From Bacteroidales bacterium (GTDB lineage Bacteria > Bacteroidota > Bacteroidia > Bacteroidales > VadinHA17), in contig JBBSAP010000005.1 of assembly GCA_038252165.1 (NCBI GenBank), positions 61 to 64,060 on the forward strand: DNA of 64,000 bases, given 5' to 3'. Made by a program: the position numbers and the translations under genes. Positions 168 to 51,624 of the stretch are shown piece after piece. Below the pieces are notes generated by a model, which was given only the letters and a program-made list of their open reading frames with translations, ran no database searches and was not told where the DNA came from. The first letter of the stretch is position 1, and each line of letters starts with the position of its first letter.

Positions 168-1427
168 ATGAATGCATTATTGGTCATAGTTCTGACAATG
201 ATCTTCTCGGCCTTTTTTTCAGGGATGGAGATCGCTTTCGTAACGTCGAACAAACTAAGGATTGAACTTGACAGGAAGCAGGGCGTATTCGGCTCAAAGA
301 TAATCCAGACCTTCACCAATAATCCGGGACAGTACATCGCAACAATGCTAATTGGCAATAATATTGCACTTGTCATTTATGGACTCTTCTTTTCAAGGCT
401 ACTCGGTCCTTTGCTTACACCACTTATCGGTTCCGACGTGGTTGTGCTGATCCTTAATACAATTATAAGTACAGGCTTAATTCTTCTTATGGCCGAGTTC
501 CTGCCCAAAACTGTTTTCATTATTTCATCAAATTTTTTTCTGAAACTGTTCAGCGTACCTGCCATGTTTTTCTATACTCTTTTTTATCCTGTAAGCAAGC
601 TGACTCTTGCAGCGGCAAATCTGTTAATCAGGCTCTTTTTCGGAATTAAAGGCGACAAAAAGGCACAGGAAAATCTTGTTTTCAGCAAGGTTGATCTTGA
701 TCATTTTGTGAATCTCAGCAGGCAGGGATCTGAAAAATCTGAGCCATATCATCAGAATATAAGGATCTTTCAGAATGCTCTCGATTTCTCCAGCGTGAAA
801 CTCAGGGAGTGCATGGTTCCCAGGACCGAAATTGACGCAGTCGAATCGAAAAGCGGAGTGGCTGAACTAAAGGAGAGGTTCATTCAGACCGGACATTCGA
901 GGATACTCATTTATCAGAGCTCTATCGACAATATTGTAGGTTACTTCGAGCTCAAGGATATCTTTAAGGATCCGTCTGACATAATATCATGTGTCAGAAA
1001 ACTGGCCATTGTCCCCGAAACAATGACTGCCAACAAGCTTCTGAAGCTATTCTTTGACGAAAAGAAAAATGTTGCTCTGGTTGTTGATGAGTTTGGTGGG
1101 ACCTCAGGAATGGTAACTATCGAAGATGTGCTTGAAGAGATTGTAGGAGATATTGAGGATGAGCATGATTATTATGAGCTCACCGAGAAAAAGATCAGCA
1201 ACAATGAGTTTATTTTATCAGGAAGGCTTGAGATCGATTACCTCAATGAGGAATACAAGCTCGGACTGCCTGAAGAGGATGACTATGAGACCCTGGCAGG
1301 TATGATCCTTTATCACCATGGAAGCATTCCCGGTGCCAATGAAATGATAAGGATCGGCAAATTTGTTTTTAGGGTGCTCAGGGTAACAACTACCAAGCTG
1401 GAGCTGGTAAACCTGAAGATTGAATAG
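168..1427 (+). CDS. CNNM/DUF21-CBS-CorC_HlyC family membrane protein (TlyC/CorC/GldE-like)
   Basis: 419-aa ORF. It has an N-terminal multi-TM region, a central CBS-pair-like region, and a C-terminal motif GGTSGMVTIEDVLEEIVGDIEDEHD typical of the CorC/HlyC transporter-associated domain. Confidence 0.85.
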   Translation: MNALLVIVLTMIFSAFFSGMEIAFVTSNKLRIELDRKQGVFGSKIIQTFTNNPGQYIATMLIGNNIALVIYGLFFSRLLGPLLTPLIGSDVVVLILNTIISTGLILLMAEFLPKTVFIISSNFFLKLFSVPAMFFYTLFYPVSKLTLAAANLLIRLFFGIKGDKKAQENLVFSKVDLDHFVNLSRQGSEKSEPYHQNIRIFQNALDFSSVKLRECMVPRTEIDAVESKSGVAELKERFIQTGHSRILIYQSSIDNIVGYFELKDIFKDPSDIISCVRKLAIVPETMTANKLLKLFFDEKKNVALVVDEFGGTSGMVTIEDVLEEIVGDIEDEHDYYELTEKKISNNEFILSGRLEIDYLNEEYKLGLPEEDDYETLAGMILYHHGSIPGANEMIRIGKFVFRVLRVTTTKLELVNLKIE

Positions 1428-1493
1428 ATATCTTCCTACCCCGATATCTATTGGGACCCTCCACCAAGAGGGAGGGACTTTAAGAATAATATA

Positions 1494-2228
1494 TTAAAGA
1501 CTGTTGTAAAACGAGATAATTTTCGCCAGGTCATCAACCTTCTTTAAATCAAGATTGTTAGCTTTAATAAAACTGCTTAATTTGCCGCTTTTATCAGGCA
1601 GAAAATCATGGAGGTCTTTTCTGTTATCGATCTTAGCAGCGCTTTTCCCTTCAGGTTGTACATAATATGTATCCCGTGTATGTATGAATTTTGCAGGGCT
1701 CCCTTCCTCCTGATAAGGTTTTGGAGGTGTAGCAGCCTGGAGCCTCAGATTCTTTTTGATCAACAACCTGCATTTCCCGTCTTTTTTAAGTATAAACCAT
1801 GAATTTTCGACTGAAGTGATGTCTCCGGGCGATTTAAGATATCCGGAATAAATAAACCTAAGGGTGTCAATCAGTACTGAAGAGATGCTTTCCGGGTTTA
1901 TAAGCGCATAGATCTCATCCTTCTTTCCGAACTGTATTTCCCCCTTAAAGATGTCATATCTGAAGTTCAATGGAATACTTTCTCCGGTTTTTAGTAAAAG
2001 GTTGCCCGGTGCAAAATCCTGATAAAGGAATGGATCTCCTTCAATTCTTTCATAGGTCACTTCTTCCCTGGCATTCATATTATGGTTAAGCCTGAGCCGG
2101 CTTAGCAATTCAAGATCGGACCTTTCAGTAGTAATAATTGTGCCTTCATTAAGCTGTCCGTATATTGCCAGAAAGCTAGAAACGATAATTATTATCAGGG
2201 AACTAATGACAATTTTAAGATTTTTCAT
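1494..2228 (-). CDS. hypothetical secreted or membrane-anchored protein
   Basis: 244-aa ORF with an N-terminal signal/anchor, MKNLKIVISSLIIIIVSSFLAIYGQ. No recognisable catalytic motif. Confidence 0.6.
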   Translation of the reverse strand: MKNLKIVISSLIIIIVSSFLAIYGQLNEGTIITTERSDLELLSRLRLNHNMNAREEVTYERIEGDPFLYQDFAPGNLLLKTGESIPLNFRYDIFKGEIQFGKKDEIYALINPESISSVLIDTLRFIYSGYLKSPGDITSVENSWFILKKDGKCRLLIKKNLRLQAATPPKPYQEEGSPAKFIHTRDTYYVQPEGKSAAKIDNRKDLHDFLPDKSGKLSSFIKANNLDLKKVDDLAKIISFYNSL

Positions 2229-2239
2229 TTATAAATTTA

Positions 2240-2860
2240 TTAGTAAAATATTGTCACAATCCAGGCGCCCGGGTTATTTATTGTCAGTCTCAATTCGCAT
2301 GTCAGTATTGCCGAATAAAAGTTATTCGGTGCAAAAAATTTAACATTCCCGTGAAACGGGAATTTCACATTCTCAAAACCGGTAAAGGCAGGTAACTGGT
2401 TTTCTGAGCCTGAGCTTCCCTGCATCAGCAGGCCGCTTATATTATTTGATTCGCCACCGTTTCGTGAAAATACATACTTTACATAAGGCCTGTCACCTGA
2501 TCTCATACATGATACCCTGCCGATTCCGTTGCGATATTCAATCACATATGGAGCCAGAGCTCTTTTACCGAGATATTTATCCTCTTTCCAAACCCCTTCA
2601 AGAAGTGAATCTCTGCTTTGATACTTATGAGAATATATTCCATAACCATCCCTGAGTCCTTTTTTCCACTCACCGTCATATGTGGCACCGTTGCTCCATA
2701 TATAAGTCCCGTTACCCTCTGGCAATCCTTTTACAAACTCACCTTTATAAAAATCCTCGCCTGTTGCATGCCCGATTCCGTCTGCCAGCCCGCGTTTACA
2801 ATCCCCTATGTAGCTTACCGATATGGCGGGCAAAAGAACCATGCATCCTGATTGCGCCAA
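2240..2860 (-). CDS. MORN-repeat protein
   Basis: Repeated YxGxxxxGxxxGxG units (FYKGEFVKGLPEGNGTY, YDGEWKKGLRDGYGIY) match the MORN repeat pattern. There is no clear signal peptide, so the start is uncertain. Confidence 0.65.
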   Translation of the reverse strand: MAQSGCMVLLPAISVSYIGDCKRGLADGIGHATGEDFYKGEFVKGLPEGNGTYIWSNGATYDGEWKKGLRDGYGIYSHKYQSRDSLLEGVWKEDKYLGKRALAPYVIEYRNGIGRVSCMRSGDRPYVKYVFSRNGGESNNISGLLMQGSSGSENQLPAFTGFENVKFPFHGNVKFFAPNNFYSAILTCELRLTINNPGAWIVTIFY

Positions 2861-3035
2861 AAATCAATTAGTGATAAGAAAAGATGCAAGAATTATCACC
2901 GGTAAAGCATTTCTTAACATATTCCGTGTACTTAAAGTTTATTTCTGATATCCAACCACAGCCAGATACATGCCTGAATATCCTGCGAATAATATTCAAC
3001 AAAAATCGCACCAATAAAGTTACGATAATATTATT

Positions 3036-3070
3036 AAAAAAAGAAAAGAGAGCCACGGGGACTCTCTTTC
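3036..3070 (-). terminator. intrinsic terminator downstream of the SusD-like gene
   Basis: An 8-bp perfect stem, AAAGAGAG (3045-3052) pairing with CTCTCTTT (3062-3069), with a 9-nt loop. On the minus strand it is followed by TCTTTTTTT. It lies 24 nt after the stop codon at 3093. Confidence 0.75.
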
Positions 3071-3092
3071 ATAAACAGTATAAATTTAAATT

Positions 3093-4766
3093 CTAATGTA
3101 CATCAGTTTCAACCGGAACCGGATTCTTCCTTGTATTCCACCATACCTGGCTTTCTGTGCCATTGGTGCTGAACATACCTTCATTTATCGACTCTATCTT
3201 CTGATCCAGACGTGCCTGAGCTACATTGCCGGTATTGTAAGTATCTTCGCTCAATGCATACTGAAGTCTGATTGGAAGACCAAGTTTCGGATAGAACGAT
3301 CCTTCAAGCTCATATTCGAAGATTCTTTCCGGGAAACCAGTCCTTCTTATCTCCGAATAAGCCTGGACACCTTCTCCATATATTGCTGCCCATCTCTGTT
3401 CACAGATCTTCTGGAATTTCTGAGCATCAGTTCCTCCCCATGCTACAAGTGGATGGGCCAGATATGTGGCATAGCTGACAGGGAAACCTGTTGGAGCGGT
3501 TGTGATAGTTGCTTTGCCATATGTCGGATAGACAGTTGAGCCATCAGCAAGACCCCATCTTGCCATTGAAGCTGCAATACCCGCTTCATAAGCATTTTTT
3601 GCCGGTCCATCATGGCCGCTGCGCATTTCATATTCAGCTATATTGAACATAACTTCATCAAATGTTAACACATAAAGCGGGGCATTTTCATCGAAGGCAA
3701 TTTTTGTCCCAAGAACCGAAATACTAGGGAAATTAGCTGATGTGATGCCTCGTCCATTCTGGAAACCTACATATTCAAGGGGAGGTGTTACAACAGAATT
3801 TGCTGTCGGCTGTCCATAGATATGAAGCCTGGGATCAACTCTTGCCTTGAGCCATTCTACCATCGTCTCGGATATCGCCTGATCTGCTCTTGTATAAAGA
3901 GTATTAAATATAGGATTCCTGTATGGAAGGCCAGGGTATGATATAAACGCATCATCATCAGTTGAATCGAAGATCGGGTACTGAGTCGGATTTCCAAGTA
4001 TTGCTGCAATCTGCGCATCAGCTGTTGCCAGTGCTGCAGGTCCGGGATTGGTAGTTACATCCGCCTGTGTGCCTGCCATATTGTAAGTAAATGTCCATGG
4101 AGTTCCCGCAACTCTGTTCAATATCCTGAGCTTGAGAGAATTGACAAATTTCCTCCATTTAACAGGGTCGCCTCCATAAATAAGGTCACCGCTTCCGAAA
4201 CTAACGGTCGTACCTGAAAGGAGGACATTGGCTTCTTCCAGTTCTGTAAGAAAAGCTGCATAAATGTCGGCTTGCTTATCATATTTGGGAGTCAGAGTAC
4301 CATCAATATCGAAACCCTGGAGTGCTTCTGAATATGGGATATCGCCCCATACATCGGTCACATACATGAACGCCCAGACCCTCATGGCCTTTGCAGCTCC
4401 TTCAAGGGATTTGTCTCCTGTTGTATTAGCTTTATTGATCACAATCGCGAGATTTTTAAGCTCGCGTGTAAAAGGAGCCTGAAATTCACCAGACATATCA
4501 CGGGGCATGTATTTGTCCTCATCAATGTACTGGACTTTGCACCACTGCTGGCACCATACTCCCAGATAGGTGTGCTGGATCCATCCGCCTAACTGACGGG
4601 AAACACCGTTCTGCACTGCATAAGTGAAGATATTAATGGCAGGAACATCAACCGGATTGTTCGGATTTGTATTAATTTCCTCAAAATCCTTGGTGCAGGA
4701 CCAAACCATGCCTGCAGCCAGGAACAATCCAAGAATTATTTTAGATGATTTTATTAAGTATTTCAT
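3093..4766 (-). CDS. SusD/RagB-family nutrient-binding outer-membrane lipoprotein
   Basis: 557 aa with a lipoprotein signal, LFLAAGMVWSC. It sits immediately downstream of a SusC-type TonB-dependent transporter, the canonical SusC/SusD pairing. Confidence 0.9.
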   Translation of the reverse strand: MKYLIKSSKIILGLFLAAGMVWSCTKDFEEINTNPNNPVDVPAINIFTYAVQNGVSRQLGGWIQHTYLGVWCQQWCKVQYIDEDKYMPRDMSGEFQAPFTRELKNLAIVINKANTTGDKSLEGAAKAMRVWAFMYVTDVWGDIPYSEALQGFDIDGTLTPKYDKQADIYAAFLTELEEANVLLSGTTVSFGSGDLIYGGDPVKWRKFVNSLKLRILNRVAGTPWTFTYNMAGTQADVTTNPGPAALATADAQIAAILGNPTQYPIFDSTDDDAFISYPGLPYRNPIFNTLYTRADQAISETMVEWLKARVDPRLHIYGQPTANSVVTPPLEYVGFQNGRGITSANFPSISVLGTKIAFDENAPLYVLTFDEVMFNIAEYEMRSGHDGPAKNAYEAGIAASMARWGLADGSTVYPTYGKATITTAPTGFPVSYATYLAHPLVAWGGTDAQKFQKICEQRWAAIYGEGVQAYSEIRRTGFPERIFEYELEGSFYPKLGLPIRLQYALSEDTYNTGNVAQARLDQKIESINEGMFSTNGTESQVWWNTRKNPVPVETDVH

Positions 4767-4784
4767 ATTTTAACACATTTAAGA

Positions 4785-7700
4785 TTAGAAATTAACCCTT
4801 AGATTAAATCCAAGCGATCTGGTGGAAGGGATTGCATTGGTTTCTGCCCCAACACTTGTATTACCGGCACTCTGGCTTACTTCCGGGTCAAGATCCGGAA
4901 TGTTCTTATGAATGATCCAGAGATTACGGCCGACAAGCGAAAGGTTAATGTCGCTCATCCCGATTTTATTCAGGAAACCGATTTTGTCGAATGAATATCC
5001 AACTGAAACCTCGCGCAGCTTGACAAAACTTCCGTCGAATAATGACAGTTCAGTCTTGGCATAGTGGTCATAACCGTAGGTATTGGCATCCACATAAGTA
5101 GTATTTGTAACCGGAGTATCAGTTACAGCTCCTGCTCCATCGGTAAAAGCAATAGTTCCATCAGTATTTACCTTTCCGTAGACGGCATCTTCTATAAGAA
5201 CACCTCCTCCTTCCAAAAGGGCGTCTCTTACATTTTTGCCATTGGCATTTATAGCTGCTGTCGGAGCAAGAACTCCTGTATACATGCCGAACATATGGCT
5301 AACTGAAAATATATCTCCGCCTTTTTTGAAGTCAACAAGGAAGCTTAGATTGAAATTCTTATACGTCAAGGAGTTATTAATACCTCCAAACCAGTCAGGA
5401 TATACATTACCGAGAGGGGTTCTCTGACCTGAACGTCTGTACCTTCCTGTAGGAGTTACAACAGGTCTGCCGGAATATTCATAATAAGCAAGCTGTGTTT
5501 TTGCTTCGTCATAATAGACCGGTTTTGCGTTTTCACGTACAACAGCATATCCATATACAGTTCCGTATTGTTTTCCGGGGAATGCATAAACGTAACCTCC
5601 CCAGCTTAAATCATAAAGGCTCAGATATTTCATGTCTTTGTATAGTTCCACAACCTTGTTCTCGTTCTTGGACCAGTTGAAGGTAACATCCCATGAAAAA
5701 TTATTTGTCTGTACCGGAGTAGCAGTTATCTGTAATTCAATACCAGAATTCTGCAGGTTGCCTGCATTGATTGTCTTTGATTGGAAACCTGTTGTATTTG
5801 AAACTGCGATGTTCATGATCTGGTTGACTGTATTCTCTTTATAGACACTTACGTCAAAACCCAGTCTGTTCTGGAAGAATCTGGCTTCCATACCAACTTC
5901 CTTTGAACGTTTTCTTTGTGGTTTAAGTCCTAGTGGCGGAATTGTTAAAGTGTAGCCCAGTGAAGGATTACCATTAAATGGCTGGTCTGCACTATACGTA
6001 CCCTGAAGCGAATATGGTTCAGCCGATCCGCCTACTTCTGCATAGCTTCCTCTCAGTTTAAGGAATGAAAGGAAATTAGATGTTATACCCAGAGCGTCTG
6101 TTAAAATAAATGATAGTGAAGCTGATGGATAAAAATAGGAATTGTTGTTTAATGGTAATGTTGACGACCAGTCATTTCTACCTGTAAGATCGAGGAAAAG
6201 GAAGTTTTTATAGCTGAAATTAGCTTGTCCGAAAATACTTTGCAGCTCGGTGTGTCTTTCACTGAGATCTGCGGTAGGAGCAACTGCAGCATTACTTACA
6301 GTATAAAGATCGGGTATAATAAGTTCTGCCACATTGATCCTCCGGAATTGCCCATTATAATGGTTATACTCAGCACCAACGCTTGCGTTTACCCCAAAGT
6401 TTCCAAATGTTTTATTAGCTTCAAGCCTGGCGTTGGCATTGATCTCCTGCCTGCGGTTTGAGTAGCTCCAAAAGCCCCCCTTAGGATAACCTATCCCAAC
6501 GTCTCCAATGGCAACACGCTCAACTATATCCTCAACTGAAAAGTCTGTTCCGGCCATGGCTTTGAATGCCAGCCAGTTGGTCAATTGCCACGACATGTTC
6601 ACGTTCCCAATCATCCTGTCCCTGTTCCTGGAGTTTGTATTTTTGTACATGTTCCAGTAAGGATTATTGTGATAACTGTGGTTCCAGCTGTATGGCATAC
6701 CTGTTTTTGGATCAGTGGTGTTCCAATTTTCCTTAAGAGCATTCATATCGACCTGACGACCGAACCACTGTCCCAGAGATTGCATCGGGTTACCTCCATT
6801 ATAGCCGTTCTCAGCTATATTATCACTTTTGTTGCTGATATATGATGCTGAACCTCCAAAGGTAATTTTGTCTGATAATGCAATATTACCTTTTAAGGCC
6901 ACATTGTTTCTTGTAAGGTCGGTATTCGGTATGATACCACTGATCTTCTGGTTAGATAGCGAAAGACGGAAATCGGCACCCTTTTTTGCACCCGCAATGG
7001 CTACCGAAGTAGTGCGTCTCATTCCTGTTCGAAAATAACTCTTTATGTTGTCAGGATGTGCTATCCATGGAGTGGCCGTGCGTGTATCGGTTTCAGCATC
7101 ATATGGACTGTCGAACTGTGGAATCAGTCTGCCGTCAAGGCGGGGACCCCAGCTTTCATCGACACCGTCATTGACACCGCCGTACATTCCATCAACATAT
7201 TCAAATTCATATTCCCCGGCTGCGGCATCTGAAGCAGATCCCTGGCCATAAAGGTTCTGATAATTAGGGATTACGAGAGGGTTTTCCCACATTACGTTTT
7301 CTTCAAGTGTCACACCGAGACCTGGTTTACCCAATCGTGATTTTCCTGATTTCGTGGTTATAAGTACAACGCCGTTAACAGCTCTTGAACCGTAAAGAGC
7401 AGCTGCACTTGCACCTTTCAGAACGCTGATATTCTCAACATCAGAAGGGTTGATATCACTGGAAGCGTTTCCATAGTCCCTCCCGCCATAAGAACCAGTG
7501 GAGCTCGTTGTGTTGTTGATAGGTACACCGTCAACAATGAATAGCGGCTGGTTATTGCCATCGGCGGAGAGTGAGTTAACACCCCTGATAAGTATTCTGA
7601 CACCCGATGAAACACCACCATCAGAGTTGGAAATCTGAACTCCTGCAAGTTTCCCCTGGAAGGCGTTTACAATGTTGGATACCTTTGCTTTTTCAAGCTT

Positions 7701-8093
7701 GTCACCTCCAAGGTCCTGCACTGCATAACCAAGAGCTTTTTTCTCCCTTGAAATACCCAGTGCTGTAACAACCACCTCATCCAGTCCGGTGATGTCTGAT
7801 TCCATTACACCATTGATTTCTGAGCGACCACCAATTTCAATCTCCTGTTTTTTCATACCGATATAGGTAAAAACCAGAGTTTTTGAATTTTGTGGTACAG
7901 GCAGGGTGTATTTTCCGTTAGCATCGGTTATGGTACCTATCGTGGTTCCCTTAACCTGAACAGTTACACCTGGGATAGGGCCTTCCCCTTCAATTGAGGA
8001 GGTCACCGTACCAGTAATTACTCTTGTTTGCGCAAACAAAGCCGTGACGCCTGCAAACACAAACAATACAATCAGCAGTAATAGTTTCTTCAT
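4785..8093 (-). CDS. SusC/RagA-family TonB-dependent outer-membrane transporter
   Basis: 1102 aa with signal peptide MKKLLLLIVLFVFAGVTALFAQ. The N-terminus has a carboxypeptidase-regulatory-like domain (ITGTVTSS..GPIPGVTVQVKGTT.GTITDANGKYTL) followed by a plug region (DEVVVTALGI). The protein ends LRVNF, an OMP-type C-terminal Phe. Confidence 0.95.
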   Translation of the reverse strand: MKKLLLLIVLFVFAGVTALFAQTRVITGTVTSSIEGEGPIPGVTVQVKGTTIGTITDANGKYTLPVPQNSKTLVFTYIGMKKQEIEIGGRSEINGVMESDITGLDEVVVTALGISREKKALGYAVQDLGGDKLEKAKVSNIVNAFQGKLAGVQISNSDGGVSSGVRILIRGVNSLSADGNNQPLFIVDGVPINNTTSSTGSYGGRDYGNASSDINPSDVENISVLKGASAAALYGSRAVNGVVLITTKSGKSRLGKPGLGVTLEENVMWENPLVIPNYQNLYGQGSASDAAAGEYEFEYVDGMYGGVNDGVDESWGPRLDGRLIPQFDSPYDAETDTRTATPWIAHPDNIKSYFRTGMRRTTSVAIAGAKKGADFRLSLSNQKISGIIPNTDLTRNNVALKGNIALSDKITFGGSASYISNKSDNIAENGYNGGNPMQSLGQWFGRQVDMNALKENWNTTDPKTGMPYSWNHSYHNNPYWNMYKNTNSRNRDRMIGNVNMSWQLTNWLAFKAMAGTDFSVEDIVERVAIGDVGIGYPKGGFWSYSNRRQEINANARLEANKTFGNFGVNASVGAEYNHYNGQFRRINVAELIIPDLYTVSNAAVAPTADLSERHTELQSIFGQANFSYKNFLFLDLTGRNDWSSTLPLNNNSYFYPSASLSFILTDALGITSNFLSFLKLRGSYAEVGGSAEPYSLQGTYSADQPFNGNPSLGYTLTIPPLGLKPQRKRSKEVGMEARFFQNRLGFDVSVYKENTVNQIMNIAVSNTTGFQSKTINAGNLQNSGIELQITATPVQTNNFSWDVTFNWSKNENKVVELYKDMKYLSLYDLSWGGYVYAFPGKQYGTVYGYAVVRENAKPVYYDEAKTQLAYYEYSGRPVVTPTGRYRRSGQRTPLGNVYPDWFGGINNSLTYKNFNLSFLVDFKKGGDIFSVSHMFGMYTGVLAPTAAINANGKNVRDALLEGGGVLIEDAVYGKVNTDGTIAFTDGAGAVTDTPVTNTTYVDANTYGYDHYAKTELSLFDGSFVKLREVSVGYSFDKIGFLNKIGMSDINLSLVGRNLWIIHKNIPDLDPEVSQSAGNTSVGAETNAIPSTRSLGFNLRVNF

Positions 8094-10640: not shown

Positions 10641-10778
10641 AATCAATTGATTTCGCCTACTGTTAAACACAAAATATGCTGCCCTTGTTCAGGGCACAGA
10701 ATTAACGGGGTCAAAAATAACTAAATTATGCAATCAGTGTTAATGGAAAGAGTTTTTCGCCTCTTAAATCCAGCCTTT

Positions 10779-13700
10779 TTATCTGATTTCCCTGATCTTA
10801 ATTTTATAATCAGCTCCCGCGCAGGTCTTTTCGTATGTAATATCCTTGCCGACATAGGCCAGCCACTCATCAGGTGTGAAATTTCTGGTCACATATGAGC
10901 AACCGTCGGCGGCGAAGGAATCGACAAAGGCAGGTCGTGCAGTAAGTTTTGGAAGGCTCCCGGAACTGCCAGAAAGGATCACTTCTCCGTCGGGACTGAA
11001 TTCAAATGCAATCACAAGCCCCTCTTTATCGGTGAAAGTGACAGGCGGACTTACCAGGTCATCAGTATCCCAGAGTTTCAGTGTTCCGTCGTTGCCGGCG
11101 GTGGCTATCTGCGAAAGCCTGCCATTGAACCGTAAATCATTTATTTCGCCCTCATGAGCCCGGAATTCCGATAATTTCTCTTTGCGTGCAACATCCCATA
11201 ATTCAACAATGCCGTCATCGTAACCTACAGCGATCATATTTTCACCAGGTTTGAATCTTATGTTCCTGATTCTTTTACCCTGAGATTCTATCCTGAAATT
11301 TTCGGAACTTTGTTCCGGGTTCCATACCAGTCCTTTTCCCTGGTCGCTTATTCCGGCAAGATATCTGTTGTTTGAGGAAAGGTCAATCGAAGTTATCTGC
11401 ATCATATCGGTTGAAAGGTCAATGAAAGTCTTTGCGGAGAGATCCCATTTGATCACTTTGCCATCGAGGGCGGCAGAATATAGGAATTTCCCGTCGAATG
11501 AGAAGACCAGTGATTTGATCCTTCCCGAATGCCCTTTCAGTTCATATTCCTGTCCGGTGTCGTTGACAGGGATCATCTTAATTGAACTGTTCAATCCGCC
11601 GCATGCCAGCCAGTCTGATCCCGGGCTGACAGCCATAACATCAATTACCTCGTTCCCTGAATATATGATCCTGAAACTCTTTTCCTTGTTGCCAAGGTCC
11701 CATTTAAGAACTTTACCCCGGGAATCAGAAGTAAAAAACTCATTTTTCCCCGGAACAAATGCAATACTTTTAACAGGGCTGTCGAAACCAGTGAAGGATT
11801 TAATTCTGCTGCTGCCCTTCTGTTTAGCAAGATTGTAAAGACCCGCGTAAATATCAGCATCATTTTTATTCCCGTTGTTCTTTTTGTTAAACAGATAACC
11901 CTGATAAGCAAGAAGAGCCTGGAGCTCACTCTGTTCCGGAACCTGAACGGACCTGAGAGACATGGATTTTGCCACAGAAATCATTCTGAGTCTCTGTGTT
12001 TCATTTTTAAGCCGGATCGCGGAATCTGCATTCATATTTGCCAGCATACTCGCCTGAATTGCGGATTCAGATTGTCTCCTGGCTTCATCAATTTCACCCT
12101 TGTCAAAAAGTATCTGATTTTCAGCATTCATCCTGAGTATTTTCTCCATTTGCTCCCTGCGTGAAGCTCCTAATGCCGCTGAATCGGACAAAACTGATTT
12201 TTTCAAAGCTATTGAAGCGTATTCATCCGATGCATTTTTCTGTGCTACAATATCTTCTTTTTGTTTTTCCGCTATCCTGCGGCGGTTATCTGCTGAAAGT
12301 TTTGAAACAAATGCTGCAACAGTAATAAGAGCAGCCACGATTGCAATTCCACCAAATATTGATGAGATGATCTTTATTTTCCTCAGCCTCCTCTTGTTAT
12401 GCCTTACTTTTCTCTCTTCAATCTCATTATGCTCCTTTTCACTGGTACGAAGGTAAACCATTGCCCTTTCGAAGGCAGGATTAAACTTCTGCGCCCACCA
12501 GATGGTAGGTTTATTTTCTTCGCGCCAGTTTACTGCAAGCTGAAGCTCGGGTTGTTTCAGGAGTCCTTTTTTCCCCTGCTGGTATAATGCTGAGGCTTCT
12601 GAAAGCCGGAGATACGTCTGAACAGATAATGATTCCTCATCAACCCATTTTCTAAGGCGTTCCCAGAGATGGATAATGCTCTCATGCGAAATATCAATGA
12701 CTGAACTTTCATCCAATCTGACTGAATATTGCGGAGTAAGTATCGATATTGAAGGATCACGGAATTTTTCAATGACCTCAATCAACTCATCTCCGCCGCA
12801 TCTGATGGCTGATCTTAAAGCATTAATATTTGAGGGATAACTTACGCCTTTATTGTCGGATCCTTTACCTGTAATGATCTTGAAAAGCCTTTCGCAGATT
12901 TTTTTTCTATCATGATTCAGCTTTTCATAAATTTCATCGGCATGCCGCGAAATGGCATCCCTCATGGTTCCGATGGAAAAATAATCCGAAAAGTCCAATG
13001 GTCTTTCGGTCTCATCAAGCTCTCTCCAGTGCATCCATGTCCTCATCAGGGCATGCTGCAGAACAGGAAGCTGATCAGTACGGTCATTTATTTCTCCGAT
13101 AAGAAGTTCAACAAGATCAGGATCGATCTCCGCACCTGCATTTCTCACAGGTCCTGTTATCGCTTCCCTGATGCATTCCCTGTTCATCTTTGAAACAAGG
13201 AAGTTGCTGTTATTTAAAAGATTTGTGAAACTTCTGTAATAAGAACATTCCGCTAACAGCTCGGACCTCAGGGCAATAACAAGGTAAAAGTCAGGATTGA
13301 CATGTGTGATTGCATTAGTAAGAAGGTTAATAAATCCGGTTATCTCAGTGCGGGATCCCGTTCCCGCCCCCGATGATCTGTTCCAGAACAATTCTTCAAA
13401 CTGATCGATGAACAAAAGAACCTTTCCGTTGATCCTGTCTGACTGTCTCCTCATAACCTCAGCAACACCTTCGGTACCCTCTTTGAGAAGATTCAGGATA
13501 TCGTTTTTGAATTCCTTTTTATGGTCAGTGCCAAAAAGATTATCAGCAAATGAGTCGGCAAGGTTACCAAAGGGATTATTGCCAGGTCGCATTGAAAGGA
13601 TCCGCCACTTCCCTTCTCCTTTTACAGAGAGTTCTCGTATTATGGGCAGCAACCCGCAAACTACCAGTGAAGATTTTCCGCTTCCGGATGCTCCTGTGAC

Positions 13701-13847
13701 TGCAATAAATCGGTTTTTCAGAAGCTTTGCGGCAATAACTTCGCTTTCATTTTCCCGTCCGAAAAAATATTCACTCTCATCCGGGGCAAATGGCCGCAAT
13801 CCCGGAAACGGACTGAATTTTTCTTCTTTTAATTTTACCGGAGCCAT
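10779..13847 (-). CDS. STAND-class P-loop NTPase with one TM helix, a coiled coil and a C-terminal 7-blade WD40 propeller
   Basis: - N-terminal motif: PFPGLRPFAPDESEYFFGRE.
- Walker A: GASGSGKSS (nt ~13671-13694).
- Walker B: VLLFIDQFEELF.
- Helical motif: ISHESIIHLWERLRKWV.
- TM helix: KIISSIFGGIAIVAALITVAAFVS (nt ~12303-12374), preceded by RHNKRRLRK.
- Seven WD-like blades, for example GKVLKWDL, DGKVIKWDL, GIVELWDV, DGTLKLWD. Confidence 0.85.
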   Translation of the reverse strand: MAPVKLKEEKFSPFPGLRPFAPDESEYFFGRENESEVIAAKLLKNRFIAVTGASGSGKSSLVVCGLLPIIRELSVKGEGKWRILSMRPGNNPFGNLADSFADNLFGTDHKKEFKNDILNLLKEGTEGVAEVMRRQSDRINGKVLLFIDQFEELFWNRSSGAGTGSRTEITGFINLLTNAITHVNPDFYLVIALRSELLAECSYYRSFTNLLNNSNFLVSKMNRECIREAITGPVRNAGAEIDPDLVELLIGEINDRTDQLPVLQHALMRTWMHWRELDETERPLDFSDYFSIGTMRDAISRHADEIYEKLNHDRKKICERLFKIITGKGSDNKGVSYPSNINALRSAIRCGGDELIEVIEKFRDPSISILTPQYSVRLDESSVIDISHESIIHLWERLRKWVDEESLSVQTYLRLSEASALYQQGKKGLLKQPELQLAVNWREENKPTIWWAQKFNPAFERAMVYLRTSEKEHNEIEERKVRHNKRRLRKIKIISSIFGGIAIVAALITVAAFVSKLSADNRRRIAEKQKEDIVAQKNASDEYASIALKKSVLSDSAALGASRREQMEKILRMNAENQILFDKGEIDEARRQSESAIQASMLANMNADSAIRLKNETQRLRMISVAKSMSLRSVQVPEQSELQALLAYQGYLFNKKNNGNKNDADIYAGLYNLAKQKGSSRIKSFTGFDSPVKSIAFVPGKNEFFTSDSRGKVLKWDLGNKEKSFRIIYSGNEVIDVMAVSPGSDWLACGGLNSSIKMIPVNDTGQEYELKGHSGRIKSLVFSFDGKFLYSAALDGKVIKWDLSAKTFIDLSTDMMQITSIDLSSNNRYLAGISDQGKGLVWNPEQSSENFRIESQGKRIRNIRFKPGENMIAVGYDDGIVELWDVARKEKLSEFRAHEGEINDLRFNGRLSQIATAGNDGTLKLWDTDDLVSPPVTFTDKEGLVIAFEFSPDGEVILSGSSGSLPKLTARPAFVDSFAADGCSYVTRNFTPDEWLAYVGKDITYEKTCAGADYKIKIREIR

Positions 13848-13860
13848 ATATAAATAAGAA

Positions 13861-15642
13861 TTATTCTTTGCAATTATCTATGTACTTAAAAATTCCGAAT
13901 GAACTTTCAGGATACTGGAAGTTAAACTCTCTGATAGTGTTTAAAGACAAAACATAACAGAAAAAACTGTTCATTCTCATGTCCCTGACGATTTTACCCG
14001 GATCGGTAATTTCATCGTGATTAATAAAGATTTCAGGGTCGCTTTTTTCGGAGGGGAACGACCATGCTATTGTATTGGACGGTTGCGAATAGATTCCCTT
14101 TTCATCATTCCTTTCAAATGACATTTTATCGGCCAGGAACAACAATTCATCTTCTTTTATTTCATTGAAACACGAAGCCAGAAATCTTACCTTTTCAAAA
14201 ACGAGTTCTTTTTCGGTTATTTCACCCGCCATTATTCTATCAAGCCGCTTCCTGGTGGCTTCAGGGATCCGTTCCGAGGCCGTCCTGTAAAGCTCTCTGC
14301 CTGATCGTGCCAGAAGCCGTGCTGACTCTTCACGAAGTAATTCTTCAGGGCTGAAGAGCAGAGCGACAACCGATTCACCAAGGTCCTGATCCCCGATCTC
14401 AGGAACCGTTCTGAGTGTGCATGCCTTGGTCCAGACATTTATAAGATTGTAATCGCAGTTAATTATATCTTCAAGCAGACTTTTTAAGGAGGGAACCTCA
14501 ACAGGGAAATACCTCTGAAGTTTTTTCAGCCTCTTTTTGTAATATCCCTGGTCAGAAGTTTTTTCAGCACCCTTATCTGAAGCGTTTCCGAAAATTATTC
14601 CAGCCAGTTCAGGAATCGGCTTACTGTATTCATCTCTGTCTTTCGGGGTTTTCCAGTCAGCTTCCGATACTTTTTCCCCATAGGTGAGGAACAGAAGATT
14701 CTGAAGATAATCCTTCCACCTGGAATATTCCTTATCCATTTCCGATGAAAGAAAATCATTGTTGCGGTTTTTCAGGCAAACCTGAGCTGCGATTATCCAG
14801 GTAAGTGTGCTGAAAGTCTCAAAAATGTTTTTATAAAGCTTCTCCTTTTCGATTTCTTTAACCTTGTATCCTGTATTTATAAGAGTATTAAGGCACATTT
14901 CCTTGATCAGTCTCGAGTTTGACCCGAGTCGTTCAACAATAAAAGACATATTTTCAGGAGGGTTAATCTGTGACAGAAGCCTTAGAAGGACCTTTCCCGC
15001 ACTTATATTTCCTGAGGCCTTCAGATAATATCTGCCGACCTCCTTCGCGGCAGCCCCTCCAAAACTCAGAAGCACTGAATATGCATCATCTTCAATTCCC
15101 TGAACACTAAGGCATTCACATACTTCCTGAATCATATCCGTCATTTTGAATTTCCCGATCAGGAATAGCGCAAGTCTCTTCAAATCAGGTGATTTATCCC
15201 TGAGGAGCCTCAGGATTTCTGTAGTATGCGGATATCTGGTTCCTGCAAGGGTCTCCCTTGCATTTTCAGCTTTCGCATATTCATCAAGGGCTGAGGGGGC
15301 TTTATGGTGGTCTTTATCGCTTTTAACCTGTTCTTCAATTTTCTCTGCAATTTCTGAAGACTTCTGACGCAGGCTCTCATCAAAATTTGCCGAACCTGCA
15401 ATTTTCTTCAGGGCAGGTAAGAGGTTTATATCCTTCTTAGTGCTTGAATAAGCAAACAGTTCCTCATAGAACCATTTGTTTTTAATCTCGTCAAGTACTG
15501 ACAGATCATCGGTCTCCAGGTAATAGAGATTTGACTTGAAAAGTGTTTTCCCCGAATACTTGTTTTTCAGATTTCCCCATTCATTTAAGTCCGGAGCTTC
15601 TTTCCTTTTCTGAACGGGGAAAAGATAAAGCCTGTTTCCCAT
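13861..15642 (-). CDS. hypothetical protein with HEAT-like helical repeats and a possible C-terminal cNMP-binding-like domain
   Basis: 593-aa ORF ending 13 nt upstream of the STAND gene. HEAT-like segments include ILRLLRDKSPDLKRLALFLIGKF and LLFSPEELLREESARLLARSG. The C-terminal pattern LVFEKVRFLASCFNEIKEDELLFLADKMSFE resembles the start of Crp-type cNMP-binding domains. The domain calls are tentative. Confidence 0.55.
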   Translation of the reverse strand: MGNRLYLFPVQKRKEAPDLNEWGNLKNKYSGKTLFKSNLYYLETDDLSVLDEIKNKWFYEELFAYSSTKKDINLLPALKKIAGSANFDESLRQKSSEIAEKIEEQVKSDKDHHKAPSALDEYAKAENARETLAGTRYPHTTEILRLLRDKSPDLKRLALFLIGKFKMTDMIQEVCECLSVQGIEDDAYSVLLSFGGAAAKEVGRYYLKASGNISAGKVLLRLLSQINPPENMSFIVERLGSNSRLIKEMCLNTLINTGYKVKEIEKEKLYKNIFETFSTLTWIIAAQVCLKNRNNDFLSSEMDKEYSRWKDYLQNLLFLTYGEKVSEADWKTPKDRDEYSKPIPELAGIIFGNASDKGAEKTSDQGYYKKRLKKLQRYFPVEVPSLKSLLEDIINCDYNLINVWTKACTLRTVPEIGDQDLGESVVALLFSPEELLREESARLLARSGRELYRTASERIPEATRKRLDRIMAGEITEKELVFEKVRFLASCFNEIKEDELLFLADKMSFERNDEKGIYSQPSNTIAWSFPSEKSDPEIFINHDEITDPGKIVRDMRMNSFFCYVLSLNTIREFNFQYPESSFGIFKYIDNCKE

Positions 15643-16218: not shown

Positions 16219-18830
16219 TACAGCTCTAGTTTCATCTGTGCCGGATCAATATTCTTTTCGGGATGCTTCGGCTCATCATCCTCTTCATCTTCCTTTTCTG
16301 AGGTCGATTGCTTTATAACCACCGGCTCAATTTCCTGGATGTTGTCGACCATGAAACTGGTAAGTCGTTTCCCTTTGGCTTTATAACTCTTGACATTTAT
16401 AAACTCGGCCACTTCAATTATTTCATTCTCCCGGTCTTTATTTTTACCACCGAAATGTATTTCGAACCGGGGATATTCAACTTCAGTGATGCTTAGAAGC
16501 TTCGATTCCGGATCTTCATTTATGAAGCAAAGAGGCTTTTCTGATTCCTCAATTGTAAATCTCTTGACATAATAGAATTTCTGCTCTGCATCCCAGTAAA
16601 TAACCGAATAGACCTTGCCGGAACGAAATTTTTCTATGATAAGGATGTTATCTTCAAAATGGTTCGAAAGATCAAAGCCGGTAACCCTGAAATACCCGTT
16701 TTTGCTTATTACAATTATTTTATCATCAGCGCTGAACTCCCCGAGGAATAAGCCCCGGCCGTCAACATTCAGCCTGAATACCGCATCATCGAACCATATC
16801 TTCCTTCCCCCGAGAGTTGATAATCCTTTCTCCTTAAGCGCAATCTTATGAACCGGATTCTTTGTAAGGATATTTCCCATTGAGGATTTGCCCTTGATTG
16901 CAAGCTGTCCGAAATCAAATTCAAAAACAAGTTTTTTGAGTCTGGCCTTAGGTTTATGATGGATTCTTATTACCTCGGCCTCACCATTCGGATTAGCGCT
17001 GAAGTAGATTATCTTCGATCCCGTGGTTCCCCTGGTCAGAGTATATTCCTTATCGCGTGTCAGACCTGAAATCGCACACCTTTTCACATAAACCGGGCCA
17101 TCTTTCCCGTCCTGGTAAACAATGTTGTAGATCGTGCGTTCGTCATTCTTCAGGAAAACCTGGGCATAAATTATATCATTCCCCACAAAAACTTTATCGT
17201 CGACTTTTGTGATCAGGTAACCGCCGTCCTTTTTTATGACAATTATATCATCGATATCAGAACAATCACACACGAATTCGTCCTTCCTCAGCCCTGTGCC
17301 AATAAAACCCTCCTTGTAATTAATGTACAATTTGGCATTGATGGCCACAACCTTTGTTGCCAGTATAGTGTCAAAGCTCCTTATCTCGGTCTTCCTTTCC
17401 TTTCCTTTTCCGTATTTCTTTTTTATCTGCCGGAAATAATTTATTGCAAACGGAATTATGTTACTGAGATGATTCTTTACTTCTTCCAGTTCTGCTTCGA
17501 TGCCTTTAATATGCTCATCAGCTTTATTAGCATCATACTTTGATATCCTCTTGATTTTGATTTCAGTAAGAGCGATGATATCTTCGCGCGTCACCTCCCT
17601 CAGCAATCTCTTCTTAAACGGTTTCAGACCGTCATCGATAGCTTTTATGACCGACTCCCATGTCTCGCATTCCTCTATATCCCTGTAGATCCGCTCCTCA
17701 ATGAAGATCTTTTCAAGCGATGACATATGCCACTCTTCGCGAAGCTCATTCTCGCGGATTTCAAGTTCTTGAGTAAGAAGCTTAACTGTATTATCAGCGG
17801 AAAAGCGAAGGATATCGCCTGCACCCAGAAAGGCAGGCTTGCTGCCAGTTATAACGCATATATTCGGAGAGATTGAATACTCGCAATCAGTCAGGGCATA
17901 GAGGGCGTCGATAGTTTTATCGGGTGAAACCCCGGGCATAAGGTGAATTACTATCTCGACGTTTGCTGAGGTGTTATCATCAATTTTCCTGATCTTGATC
18001 TTGCCCTTCTCACTGGATTTGATTATAGATTCAATAAGGCTTGACGTCGTTTTACCAAAAGGTATCTCAGTAATTACAAGAGCTTTCTTATCAACCTTTT
18101 CTATTTTTGCCCTGACCTTAACAACTCCGCCCCTCTGACCGTCATTATATCTTGAAATATCGATCATGCCGCCTGTAGGGAAATCGGGATAAAGAATAAA
18201 TTCTTTACCCTGGAGATAATCAATTGAGGCGTCGATTATTTCGTTGAAGTTATGAGGAAGTATTTTTGAAGCCAGACCGACAGCAATGCCTTCTCCGCCC
18301 TGGGCAAGCAGAAGGGGAAATTTTACCGGAAGTGTTACTGGTTCCTTGTTCCTGCCGTCATACGAAAGCTTCCATTCGGTTGTTTTAGGGTTGAACACCA
18401 CTTCCAGTGCAAATTTTGACAACCTTGCTTCAATATATCTCGGAGCTGCAGCGCCATCGCCGGTCAGAACATTACCCCAGTTTCCCTGAGTATCAATAAG
18501 CAGATCCTTCTGTCCCAGCTGAACCAAAGCATCACCTATAGAAGCGTCCCCGTGAGGATGGAACTGCATTGTGTGCCCGATGATGTTTGCCACCTTGTTG
18601 TACCGGCCGTCATCCATCCTCTTCATGGAGTGAAGAATGCGCCGCTGAACAGGTTTCAATCCGTCGTTAAGATGCGGCACCGCACGTTCGAGAATTACAT
18701 ACGAAGCATAATCGAGGAACCAGTCCTGGTACATCCCCGACAAAGCCGTAACAGAATGCAAAGCAGCCGGACCAGGAGTAAGTTCACCTTTCCCTTCAGG
18801 TTTTTCCAATTCAAGATCCTGATCGTTCAT
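16218..18830 (-). CDS. parC: DNA topoisomerase IV subunit A (type IIA topoisomerase A subunit)
   Basis: 870 aa with YASYVILERAVP..DGLKPVQRRILH and the active-site region AAPRYIEARL. It is paired with a short B subunit, which favours ParC over GyrA. Confidence 0.88.
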   Translation of the reverse strand: MNDQDLELEKPEGKGELTPGPAALHSVTALSGMYQDWFLDYASYVILERAVPHLNDGLKPVQRRILHSMKRMDDGRYNKVANIIGHTMQFHPHGDASIGDALVQLGQKDLLIDTQGNWGNVLTGDGAAAPRYIEARLSKFALEVVFNPKTTEWKLSYDGRNKEPVTLPVKFPLLLAQGGEGIAVGLASKILPHNFNEIIDASIDYLQGKEFILYPDFPTGGMIDISRYNDGQRGGVVKVRAKIEKVDKKALVITEIPFGKTTSSLIESIIKSSEKGKIKIRKIDDNTSANVEIVIHLMPGVSPDKTIDALYALTDCEYSISPNICVITGSKPAFLGAGDILRFSADNTVKLLTQELEIRENELREEWHMSSLEKIFIEERIYRDIEECETWESVIKAIDDGLKPFKKRLLREVTREDIIALTEIKIKRISKYDANKADEHIKGIEAELEEVKNHLSNIIPFAINYFRQIKKKYGKGKERKTEIRSFDTILATKVVAINAKLYINYKEGFIGTGLRKDEFVCDCSDIDDIIVIKKDGGYLITKVDDKVFVGNDIIYAQVFLKNDERTIYNIVYQDGKDGPVYVKRCAISGLTRDKEYTLTRGTTGSKIIYFSANPNGEAEVIRIHHKPKARLKKLVFEFDFGQLAIKGKSSMGNILTKNPVHKIALKEKGLSTLGGRKIWFDDAVFRLNVDGRGLFLGEFSADDKIIVISKNGYFRVTGFDLSNHFEDNILIIEKFRSGKVYSVIYWDAEQKFYYVKRFTIEESEKPLCFINEDPESKLLSITEVEYPRFEIHFGGKNKDRENEIIEVAEFINVKSYKAKGKRLTSFMVDNIQEIEPVVIKQSTSEKEDEEDDEPKHPEKNIDPAQMKLEL

Positions 18831-18857
18831 CCCTATAATCGCTTCCTTTTAAACCGT

Positions 18858-20705
18858 TTAAACTTCTTCCTCTACCAGATCTTCCTCAACCCTCAGATTT
18901 TCAATAATAAAATCCTGTCTGTCGGGTGTATTCTTTCCCATATAGAATTCAAGATACCCGTTTACGGCATCGTTTTTCTTCATCCTTACCGGTTCAAGCC
19001 GGATATCCTTTCCTATAAAATGCTTGAATTCATCAGGAGAGATTTCACCAAGACCTTTAAACCTGGTTATTTCAGGAGCAGGTCCGAGTACTTTGATTGC
19101 TTTTGCCTTTTCATCAGGCGTATAACAATATCTGGTATCCTTCTTGTTCCTTACTCTGAATAGTGGCGTCTGTAGGATATAAACATGTCCCTTTCTGACG
19201 AGATCAGGAAAGAACTGAAGGAAGAAAGTCAGGAGGAGGAGCCTGATATGCATACCATCAACATCGGCATCTGTTGCAATAACAACATTGTTGTATCTCA
19301 GGTCCTCAATTCCATCCTCAACATTCAAAGCCGACTGGAGGAGATTGAATTCCTCATTTTCATAGACTATCTTCTTTGTCAGGCCATACGAATTGAGTGG
19401 TTTTCCCCTGAGACTGAAGACTGCCTGTGTTTCAACATTCCGCGATTTTGTGATAGAGCCGCTGGCAGAATCTCCCTCAGTTATGAAGATTGTGGAATCG
19501 AGGTTTCTCGAATCGTTAGTGTTGAAATGGATCCTGCAGTCGCGAAGTTTTTTATTATGAAGGCTTACCTTTTTTGCCCTGTCCCTGGCGAGCTTCTGTA
19601 TTGAAGATATTGCTTTCCTCTCTTTTTCTGAATCCTGAATCTTCTGAAGAAGGATCCTGGCTGTTTCAGAATTCTTATGCAGATAATCGTCCAGCTGCTT
19701 CCTGATGAATTCGCTGATGAAATTCCTGACTGACGGCCCTTCGGGTCCCATATCCTTTGATCCAAGCTTGGTTTTGGTCTGCGATTCGAAGATAGGCTCC
19801 TCAACTTTTATGCTGATGGCAGCAATAATAGAGGACCTTATATCAGCCGGCTCATAATCTTTCTTGTAAAAATCACGGACAGTTTTGACAAATGCTTCCC
19901 TGAAAGCTATGAGGTGCGATCCTCCCTGTGTTGTATTCTGACCATTTACAAAACTGTAATAATCTTCTCCATATGTCAATCCATGAGTAAAAGCGATCTC
20001 GATATCCTCTCCCCTAAGATGAACAATCGGATAGAGTCCCTCCTTGTTCATGTTTTCATTAAGAAGATCAACAAGTCCGTTTTTTGAAAAGAATTTGTTC
20101 CCGTTGAAATTGATTACAAGTCCGGCATTCAGGTAAACGTAGTTTTTCAGCATTGAATCCACGTATTCCGATATATAGTAATAATTGCCGAACAAAGCCT
20201 CATCAGGCTGGAATATTACCTCAACACCATTCTCTTCGGTGGTTGGCTCCAGGGGAGGATCCTTAATTGTAACTCCGTGAGCGAATTCACTCACCTTGAT
20301 CTGCCCGTCGCGGATCGACCTGATTATGAACCTGCTCGACAATGCATTAACCGCCTTGACACCAACACCGTTCAATCCCACAGATTTTTTAAATGCTTTT
20401 GAATCGTATTTAGCACCTGTGTTCATTTTCGAGACCGCCTCAGTCACTTTTCCCAATGGGATTCCACGGCCATAGTCGCGTACCCTCACCTCATTACCGT
20501 TGATCGCTACATCAATTTTCTTGCCGTAACACATCATATATTCATCAACGGCGTTATCCATCACTTCTTTCAGCAGTACATAAATTCCATCATCCTGCGA
20601 GGATCCGTCACCCAGCTTCCCAATGTACATACCAGGCCTTAACCGTATATGTTCCCGCCATTCGAGGGTTTTTATATGCTCTTCAGAATATCCGACAACT
20701 GTCAT
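18858..20705 (-). CDS. parE: DNA topoisomerase IV subunit B
   Basis: 615 aa with GHKL ATPase motifs ([23 protein letters not shown]) and Toprim motifs ([12 protein letters not shown]-like [21 protein letters not shown]). Confidence 0.9.
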
Positions 20706-47823: not shown

Positions 47824-47930
47824 AAACAGGTTTTATTAAAAGGGGAAAGTCCGGTTTATTTGAGACAAGTTAAACAAAAATCTATTTCCATCATACTGAA
47901 TAATTGAGTTTCCTGATTTAAATTTCAGGT

Positions 47931-47938
47931 TATATTTG
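47931..47938 (+). promoter_or_regulatory. candidate -7 box (TATATTTG) for upp
   Basis: Exact fit to TAnnTTTG, 27 nt upstream of the upp ATG at 47966. Confidence 0.55.
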
Positions 47939-47965
47939 TTAATTAATTAACAATATCCAAGTCAG

Positions 47966-48586: not shown

Positions 48587-48598
48587 TAAAAGAAAAAT

Positions 48599-51613: not shown

Positions 51614-51624
51614 GCTTATCCTGA

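Follow-up and report, generated by a model that had tools for sequence, protein, structure and literature searches.

What does a STAND NTPase that probably spans the membrane do in a row of housekeeping genes? The question is raised by two adjacent genes in a Bacteroidales genome of the VadinHA17 lineage (GenBank assembly GCA_038252165.1). They lie on a 64,000-nucleotide stretch of contig JBBSAP010000005.1 (positions 61 to 64,060), which is referred to here as the window. The first gene (13861..15642) encodes p2, a soluble protein of 593 aa with a predicted HEAT/ARM-like solenoid and a degenerate cyclic-nucleotide-binding (CNB)-homology domain. The second (10779..13847) encodes p1, a protein of 1022 aa with an nSTAND1 NTPase, a predicted transmembrane (TM) helix, a helical linker, a seven-blade WD40 propeller, and a C-terminal tail. 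Coordinates are window positions, and p1, p2, and all their features are on the minus strand. A preliminary description of this DNA, made from the letters alone, had proposed a two-gene unit with a ligand-gated partner and a possible anti-phage or conflict role. The chances appear about even that a Bacteroidales lineage has inherited the pair vertically as a reduced transmembrane STAND module for signalling.

The two genes are persistently linked and are under purifying selection. Both open reading frames (ORFs) are present as described, the 593-aa frame being taken from the ORF list, and the spacer between them has 13 nt as read from the sequence (13848..13860, TTCTTATTTATAT). A survey of one genome per GTDB species gave 80 Bacteroidales loci with a p2 homologue (37-87% identity). 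In 78 of them a p1 homologue follows p2 on the same strand, and the remaining two loci are truncated by the end of the contig. The co-occurrence check named in the preliminary description therefore finds the pair linked in 78 of 78 assessable species, and related pairs occur in cultured Cytophagales. Almost everywhere among the 80 loci parE, parC, and aroK lie upstream of the pair. Fifty loci, including the window, have a short p2 followed directly by p1, and in nearly all of these the spacer is 6-26 nt. Another 14 have a long p2 and then p1. In the remaining 16 a gene for a TM-HAMP-PP2C (SiaA-like) phosphatase stands between a long p2 and p1, and the place of gpmI after p1 is taken by genes for a signal-peptide outer-membrane barrel and a lipoprotein. 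The p1 and p2 families are also linked in many metagenome loci, among them L086, L087, and L089 (L-numbers are labels of comparison loci from relatives), and in Runella and Persicobacter, with varying gene order.

The ratio of nonsynonymous to synonymous substitution (dN/dS) is 0.09-0.14 for p1 and 0.11-0.17 for p2, compared with 0.12-0.24 for aroK and 0.03-0.04 for parC. Both genes are genuine and conserved, chance ORFs are excluded, and purifying selection extends to the propeller of p1. When ParC and ParE are controlled, p2 distances and distances of the cytoplasmic part of p1 have a partial correlation of 0.74, against 0.19-0.34 for the adjacent aroK; the signal may be inflated by rate shifts common to the short- and long-p2 clades and by pairs that are not independent. 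This suggests that p2 and cytoplasmic p1 co-evolve. More than 380 p2 homologues were found, none of them named, and there are none in 2.9 million viral contigs or in 72,556 plasmids. In the long-read metagenome-assembled genomes at L003, L005, L010, L074, and L086-L089, parE, parC, gpmI, p1, and p2 are split into short ORFs, apparently through frameshift errors at homopolymers and not because they are pseudogenes.

The N-terminal part of p1 has the features of an active STAND NTPase. The nSTAND1 NTPase with its helical/winged-helix module occupies residues 13-426 (12570..13811) and covers positions 1-375 of the 379 in the Pfam nSTAND1 profile (PF20703), with E 2.1e-87 and 294.7 bits against a cut-off of 27.1. 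The motif PFPGLRPF..FFGRE is at the N-terminus, within this module. Since 12 residues alone precede the match, p1 lacks an N-terminal effector domain, in agreement with the first reading of the sequence. The Walker A motif (GASGSGKSS with K58; residues 52-60, nucleotides 13668-13694) and the Walker B motif (LLFIDQFEE; residues 144-152, nucleotides 13392-13418) are intact, as in an active-type P-loop NTPase. Conservation figures for p1 come from an alignment of 72 full-length orthologues, in which G52, G57, K58, S60, and D148 are 100% conserved, E151 98%, and E152 94%. A profile of the NTPase module finds P-loop matches alone in the PDB (UvrA and ABC ATPases) and no solved nSTAND1 relative. An NCBIfam scan of p1 and p2 gave nothing specific.

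A juxtamembrane helical segment with a Lys/Arg-rich end follows the NTPase module (residues 427-492, 12372..12569). Residues 400-475 contain blocks that are 63-79% identical, among the highest values in p1, and many of their columns are invariant in an alignment of distant homologues, even at about 40% identity. The best-conserved block of the protein is formed by these helices ahead of the membrane (about 400-475; window 12372-12650) rather than by the P-loop region, and it reads ..ISHESxxxxWxRLxxWVDEE...PELQLAxNWRE...NPAFERAMVYL... The only viral matches of the family are at L171 and L172 (IMG/VR), where a distant nSTAND1-like NTPase has 28% identity over query residues 10-277.

Hydrophobicity and flanking charges suggest that p1 probably spans the membrane, with its propeller in the periplasm. 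The protein has one hydrophobic segment, a single predicted TM helix at residues 493-515 (12303..12371, IISSIFGGIAIVAALITVAAFVS), with ERKVRHNKRRLRKIK directly ahead of it and a 19-residue Kyte-Doolittle maximum of 2.46. The candidate helix is an uncharged span of 23 residues, and the equivalent span is 19-25 residues long in 72 of 72 orthologues; values in the p1 family range from 2.0 to 3.2. A search with residues 1-530 found more than 2700 relatives. A basic stretch and a helix at about 490-510 are present in all 94 homologues of at least 540 aa among the matches listed, and 75 of the 82 testable proteins from 80 metagenomic loci of more distant relatives have the helix. The single TM helix of the preliminary description is thus a predicted feature of all orthologues and of distant relatives. 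In the orthologues (n=72) the 15 residues on the N-terminal side have a mean of 7.3 K/R and a net charge of +6.5, while those on the C-terminal side have 4.5 K/R and a net charge of +2.2. The difference is larger in distant homologues (n=65), with a net charge of +5.5 against +0.2, and in 133 of 137 sequences K/R residues are more numerous ahead of the helix than after it. The NTPase requires cytoplasmic nucleotide. This requirement and the charge asymmetry favor an orientation with the N-terminus inside and the linker and propeller in the periplasm, which fits the earlier suggestion that NTPase and propeller lie on opposite sides. A periplasmic propeller also agrees with the envelope genes found downstream of p1 homologues in relatives.

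The linker (residues 516-680, 11808..12302) is poor in Pro and rich in Gln, Lys, and Glu. Residues 516-640 contain one Pro and two Gly in 125 residues, and 60% of them are A, E, K, Q, R, L, or M, a composition that fits a long helix and may indicate a coiled coil. Only one other region of p1 is as poorly conserved as the linker (32-50%). The seven-blade WD40 beta-propeller (residues 681-965, 10953..11807) had been recognized from the start. All seven repeats can be read in the sequence between about 684 and 965, and there are strong Pfam WD40 and beta-propeller matches; by sequence the propeller matches the PDB entry 2ymu at 5e-43, PkwA at 3e-30, and the WD40 region of Apaf-1 at 1.6e-23. With 50-76% conservation it ranks with the better preserved parts of the protein. 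The last 57 residues form a tail (residues 966-1022, 10782..10952, ..RNFTPDEWLAYVGKDITYEKTC..) that is 50-69% conserved in the last three alignment blocks.

The partner p2 is predicted to be a helical-repeat protein. No hydrophobic segment was found in it by hydropathy. Residues from about 19 to 480 (14203..15588) are modelled by AlphaFold2 as an all-helical HEAT/ARM-like solenoid, and residues 481-593 (13864..14202) as a small C-terminal alpha/beta domain; the model was built from 31 homologues and has a pLDDT of 84.5 and a pTM of 0.84. The sole Pfam match of p2 is to HEAT_2, below threshold (E 2.6e-4), and relatives reach 8.5e-7 or 2.5e-14. These results speak for the helical-repeat partner of the preliminary description. 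A Foldseek search with the whole model gave weak matches to the repeats of AP2, karyopherin, and PP2A-A (E about 0.02) and low-probability matches to HCN.

The C-terminal domain of p2 is related to cyclic-nucleotide-binding domains, as had been noticed, but the phosphate-binding cassette has been lost. The last 132 residues were modelled alone, with a pLDDT of 77.7 and about four strands. The top 50 Foldseek matches of this domain in the PDB are all CNBD or CNB-homology domains, from HCN, PKG, SthK, EAG/hERG, and CNG proteins, with a best E of 9e-4 (about 1e-3) and probabilities up to 0.99 at TM scores of just 0.3-0.49 (0.44 for the best match). Pfam cNMP_binding (PF00027) has no match in p2 at E up to 1, nor in the 25 Bacteroidales proteins of the long form that were scanned. 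Matches are present in outgroup proteins of L086 and L087 (1.4e-10 and 5e-4), and in L086 the match is at a position equivalent to the C-terminus of p2. A comparison by hhalign of the C-terminal profile with an approximate E. coli CRP sequence was not significant, with seven aligned columns. Alignment with E. coli CRP and the outgroups indicates that p2 and all Bacteroidales forms have a deletion that removes the cassette region, while the cNMP-like domains of the outgroups keep the Gly-Glu of the cassette and lack its Arg. The resemblance appears to reflect real homology, and the domain of p2 is best described as a shortened CNB-homology domain. Because the cassette is gone, gating by a cyclic nucleotide is unsupported, and the proposal of a ligand-gated partner does not hold.

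Longer orthologues suggest where p2 came from. In 30 of the 80 species p2 is 1001-1022 aa long and has 10-14 N-terminal TM segments. A profile of this membrane domain matches the chloroplast and bacterial ADP/ATP carriers (NTT/TLC) 9j3j and 9j3n at about 1e-10, and Pfam TLC reaches 1e-10 in two of the 25 long-form members. Proteins of L086 and L089 have matches to TLC, HEAT_2 (to 2.5e-14), and cNMP_binding. In the 1011-aa long form of L058, p2 matches residues 450-1007 (41% identity over 568 residues, E 1e-135), and in the 1095-aa TLC-like/HEAT_2/cNMP_binding protein of L086 it matches residues 542-978 (E 5e-11). Fusions of NTT, HEAT, and cNBD domains were described without a function in 2017 in cyanobacteria, Chlamydiae, and oomycetes (Major, Embley, Williams; PMC5381601), and by its alignments p2 is the HEAT-cNBD part of this family without the transporter domain. 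Since p2 begins just past the end of the last membrane helix of the long forms, about 54 nt from aroK, the NTT domain appears to have been cleanly lost. In an outgroup-rooted neighbour-joining tree of p1, which has no support values, short p2 is found in two places. The window belongs to one large short-form clade, and a second, small short-form pair (L043 and L051) lies elsewhere. A single origin of short p2 was rejected on this tree, which needs at least two changes. Because the short forms occupy two separate positions, the NTT domain has probably been lost at least twice independently.

Gene orders in relatives suggest that the window pair is a remnant of a larger cluster conserved in Bacteroidota. 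The orders were read in metagenomic relatives with hidden Markov models built from the neighbours (80 loci). One consists of an NTT-HEAT-cNBD protein, a DUF4062 protein, an nSTAND1-TM-repeat protein, an outer-membrane barrel, and a lipoprotein. A second lacks the DUF4062 gene, and in a third a PP2C gene is added or substituted. The commonest order in distant relatives is a bare pair of DUF4062 and nSTAND1-TM genes. DUF4062 is a TIR-like NADase that acts in the Swarozyc defence system and is present in animal NWD1 and TEP1. In L113-L170, which are mostly from soil, the nSTAND1-TM gene encodes a protein of about 800 to 2700 aa and is most often preceded, about 1.6 kb upstream, by the DUF4062 gene; the pair resembles the animal DUF4062-NACHT-WD40 layout in a split, membrane-anchored form. 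The larger cluster is seen at L058:8654-19261 and also in L086, L089, L091-L106, L116, L119, and L129. Its barrel is a signal-peptide OMP_b-brl_2 protein of about 350 aa, and its lipoprotein has about 410 aa with internal repeats; in L058 the two are at 16940-18004 and 18008-19261. Giant Por_Secre_tail genes (cargo of the type IX secretion system) are located just downstream of the cluster in L086, L089, and L090.

Cultured Cytophagales carry both families. Runella rosea HYN0085 has an nSTAND1-TM homologue (WP_114070623.1) and an NTT-HEAT-type protein of 962 aa annotated as an "MFS transporter" (WP_114070620.1). On the Runella plasmid (NZ_CP030852.1 58467-77897, L173), two STAS/anti-sigma-antagonist genes and a gene for an RsbW-like ATP-binding protein are immediately upstream of WP_114070623.1. 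A TonB-dependent receptor follows it, with an N-terminus that resembles that of the outer-membrane barrel of the cluster. On plasmid pPP2 of Persicobacter psychrovividus (NZ_AP025294.1 267914-287302, L174), NTT-HEAT-type (1048 aa, WP_338398657.1) and nSTAND1-TM (1013 aa, WP_338398658.1) genes are adjacent, and the pair is situated between genes annotated as components of a contractile injection system or phage tail. The label "Hat/HatR high-affinity carbon uptake" on some relatives led to nothing usable in the literature and is treated as an uninformative legacy annotation.

A cluster that has been reduced this far might also be a decaying relic without an independent function. Judged against related loci, the window has shed the NTT domain, the cassette, the DUF4062/TIR-like or PP2C gene, and the outer-membrane genes, as such a relic would. 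Yet the ORFs are intact and full length in about 50 short-form species, the dN/dS of 0.09-0.17 is comparable to that of aroK, and the catalytic motifs are invariant, and decay is very improbable.

Several observations weigh against a transmembrane signalling module. The co-evolution signal may be inflated, as stated above, and the window contains no DUF4062 gene, PP2C gene, other effector gene, or outer-membrane partner. The definition of nSTAND1 comes from counter-invader systems, in which TIR, caspase, or other effectors stand at the N-terminus (PMC8195603). In the Bacteroidales orthologues the flank just after the helix is itself fairly basic (4.5 K/R per 15), which is unusual for a translocated segment, and by sequence the propeller is most similar to cytosolic proteins. 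The Bacteroidetes O-glycosylation motif D[ST][AILVMT], used as a proxy for periplasmic exposure, is not enriched in the putative periplasmic part, with 0.34 observed and 0.35 expected per 100 aa. The points on the flank, the propeller, and the motif would all be explained if the helix merely tethered p1 or were buried in an oligomer, so that NTPase and propeller were both cytoplasmic and p1 were an ordinary membrane-associated STAND protein with a HEAT adaptor. This explanation is rather unlikely. Hundreds of homologues have 19-25 uncharged residues at this position, enough to cross the membrane once but not to form a re-entrant hairpin. The flanking charges differ consistently in the direction described above, and many relatives encode a signal-peptide barrel and a lipoprotein directly downstream.

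The definition of nSTAND1 also raises the possibility of an anti-phage or conflict system of the Avs or bNACHT type, in which the propeller would sense an invader protein, the NTPase would oligomerize, and p2 or an unlinked effector would act. A DUF4062 gene, of the TIR-like NADase family that Swarozyc also uses, is directly upstream of the nSTAND1-TM gene in most metagenomic relatives, and nSTAND1 relatives are found on plasmids of Streptomyces, cyanobacteria, and Cytophagales. The window itself offers little for such a role, since p1 has no effector domain, DUF4062 is missing, and p2 has no enzymatic domain. PADLOC gave only a match of the WD40 region to HEAT-ARM_XIII and P-loop noise. The pair occupies the same core-genome position in 80 species without defence-gene neighbours, and the viral contigs and plasmids searched contain no p2. 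The dN/dS is low, and the sensor is better conserved than the linker. In addition, 391 of 589 prokaryotic STAND clades have been classed as non-defence (PMC13581612). The anti-phage or conflict role mentioned in the preliminary description is thus distinctly unlikely for this pair.

The proposed transmembrane signalling module would work as follows. p1 would be anchored in the inner membrane by its one helix, with the NTPase and juxtamembrane helices in the cytoplasm and the linker and propeller in the periplasm. The propeller would bind a conserved partner in the envelope or periplasm. The TM helix and the conserved 400-475 block would relay binding to the nucleotide switch or the oligomerization of the STAND module, which would engage p2 as a cytoplasmic adaptor or output scaffold. 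The window lineage would keep only the sensor-switch and the scaffold, to which relatives add DUF4062, PP2C/STAS, barrel, and lipoprotein. The PP2C, STAS, and RsbW genes that recur beside relatives suggest that the output is a signal and not cell suicide. We infer the topology, the contact between p1 and p2, the direction of the signal, and the nature of ligand and output. A wider reading is possible, though somewhat doubtful: p1 may represent a large unrecognized class of transmembrane, NLR-like bacterial receptors with an extracytoplasmic repeat sensor, coupled to NTT-HEAT-cNBD proteins in Bacteroidota, and the window lineage may have a domesticated, minimal, effector-less version that serves in core envelope signalling.

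The surroundings of the pair are those of a core-genome locus, as had been noted. The two genes are flanked by aroK, parC, parE, and a mutS-family gene on one side and by gpmI, an Rv0495c-like gene, and a SusC/SusD pair on the other. GC content is flat over the p2-p1 region. An Rfam scan of the window found no families, and a scan for sigma-70 promoters and terminators, which is unsuited to Bacteroidetes promoters, gave counts no higher than expected from shuffling. The ORF finder starts gpmI at GTG 10670 (516 aa), while orthologues have 506 aa, and the ATG at 10640 (MKNKKTLL...) is a better-fitting start. A Bacteroidetes-type TAnnTTTG box (TATTTTTG, about 10715-10722) lies upstream of gpmI, and there is a hairpin at 10680-10696. 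These elements suggest that gpmI probably has its own promoter and that the p2-p1 transcript probably ends there. Elsewhere the window encodes a CNNM/CBS/CorC_HlyC protein (168-1427), a MORN-repeat protein (2240-2860), the SusD/SusC pair (3093-8093), a 1036-aa fused ABC ATPase/ABC-2 permease (44713-47823), and an enzyme of the GH95 fucosidase family (51625-53964). No defence genes were seen in this remaining content (168-8093 and 44713-53964).

The pair combines parts that are known separately. The preliminary description had called it not a described system, and no paper was found on a linkage between STAND and NTT-HEAT-cNBD proteins or on a membrane-spanning STAND protein with its propeller outside. 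A study of diversity-generating retroelements predicted differing localizations in passing for some STAND targets (PMC10907252). p2 appears homologous to the HEAT and cNBD parts of the NTT-HEAT-cNBD proteins (PMC5381601), and its orthologues in 30 of 80 species keep the NTT/TLC-like domain. It differs from them in lacking both the transporter domain and the cassette, and a STAND linkage was not reported in that work. Persistent linkage to, and apparent co-evolution with, a STAND NTPase thus provide a first genomic handle on NTT-HEAT-cNBD proteins. The HEAT-cNBD half appears to have outlived the transporter half on at least two occasions, which suggests that it has an independent role. In apparently keeping a CNBD fold without a functional cyclic-nucleotide site, the model of p2 is like the CNB-homology domains of EAG/hERG. 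The domain of p2 is shorter still, with about four strands modelled, and it would sit on a HEAT solenoid instead of a channel. The two-gene form in the window is the simplest version of the module, a minimal, domesticated form of a broader uncharacterized Bacteroidota cluster, of which cultured Cytophagales carry fuller versions.

p1 resembles the nSTAND1 clade (Kaur, Iyer, Burroughs, Aravind 2021, PMC8195603) in its full-length profile match, its motifs, and its C-terminal repeats. The described members carry TIR, caspase, and EAD effector or adaptor domains in variable conflict loci, whereas p1 has none of these and is found at a fixed core locus. No mention of a TM helix between NTPase and repeats was found in the nSTAND1 literature searched. 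Avs and bNACHT proteins share with p1 the tripartite logic of an NTPase switch and a repeat sensor; the window differs in having no effector, defence island, PADLOC match to such a system, or diversifying sensor, and p1 in having a predicted membrane helix. The order of a STAND NTPase followed by WD40 repeats is that of Apaf-1 and the animal DUF4062-NACHT-WD40 proteins NWD1, NWD2, and TEP1, and the DUF4062 gene immediately upstream of p1 relatives mirrors the order of the latter. These proteins belong to the AP-ATPase or NACHT clade and p1 to nSTAND1, and they have two propellers where p1 has one. They also lack the predicted TM helix that p1 has between NTPase and propeller, and the window has no CARD or DUF4062 effector. 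The putative layout of p1, with the N-terminus inside and a large C-terminal sensor outside, has counterparts in single-pass bacterial receptors such as the PknB-type Ser/Thr kinases, and the WD40 domain of the kinase PkwA is close to the propeller of p1. PknB-type receptors and PkwA have a kinase on the inside, where p1 would have a STAND NTPase. STAND and NLR proteins are regarded as intracellular sensors, and a helix that places the repeat sensor outside would, if true, extend this picture to transmembrane signalling.

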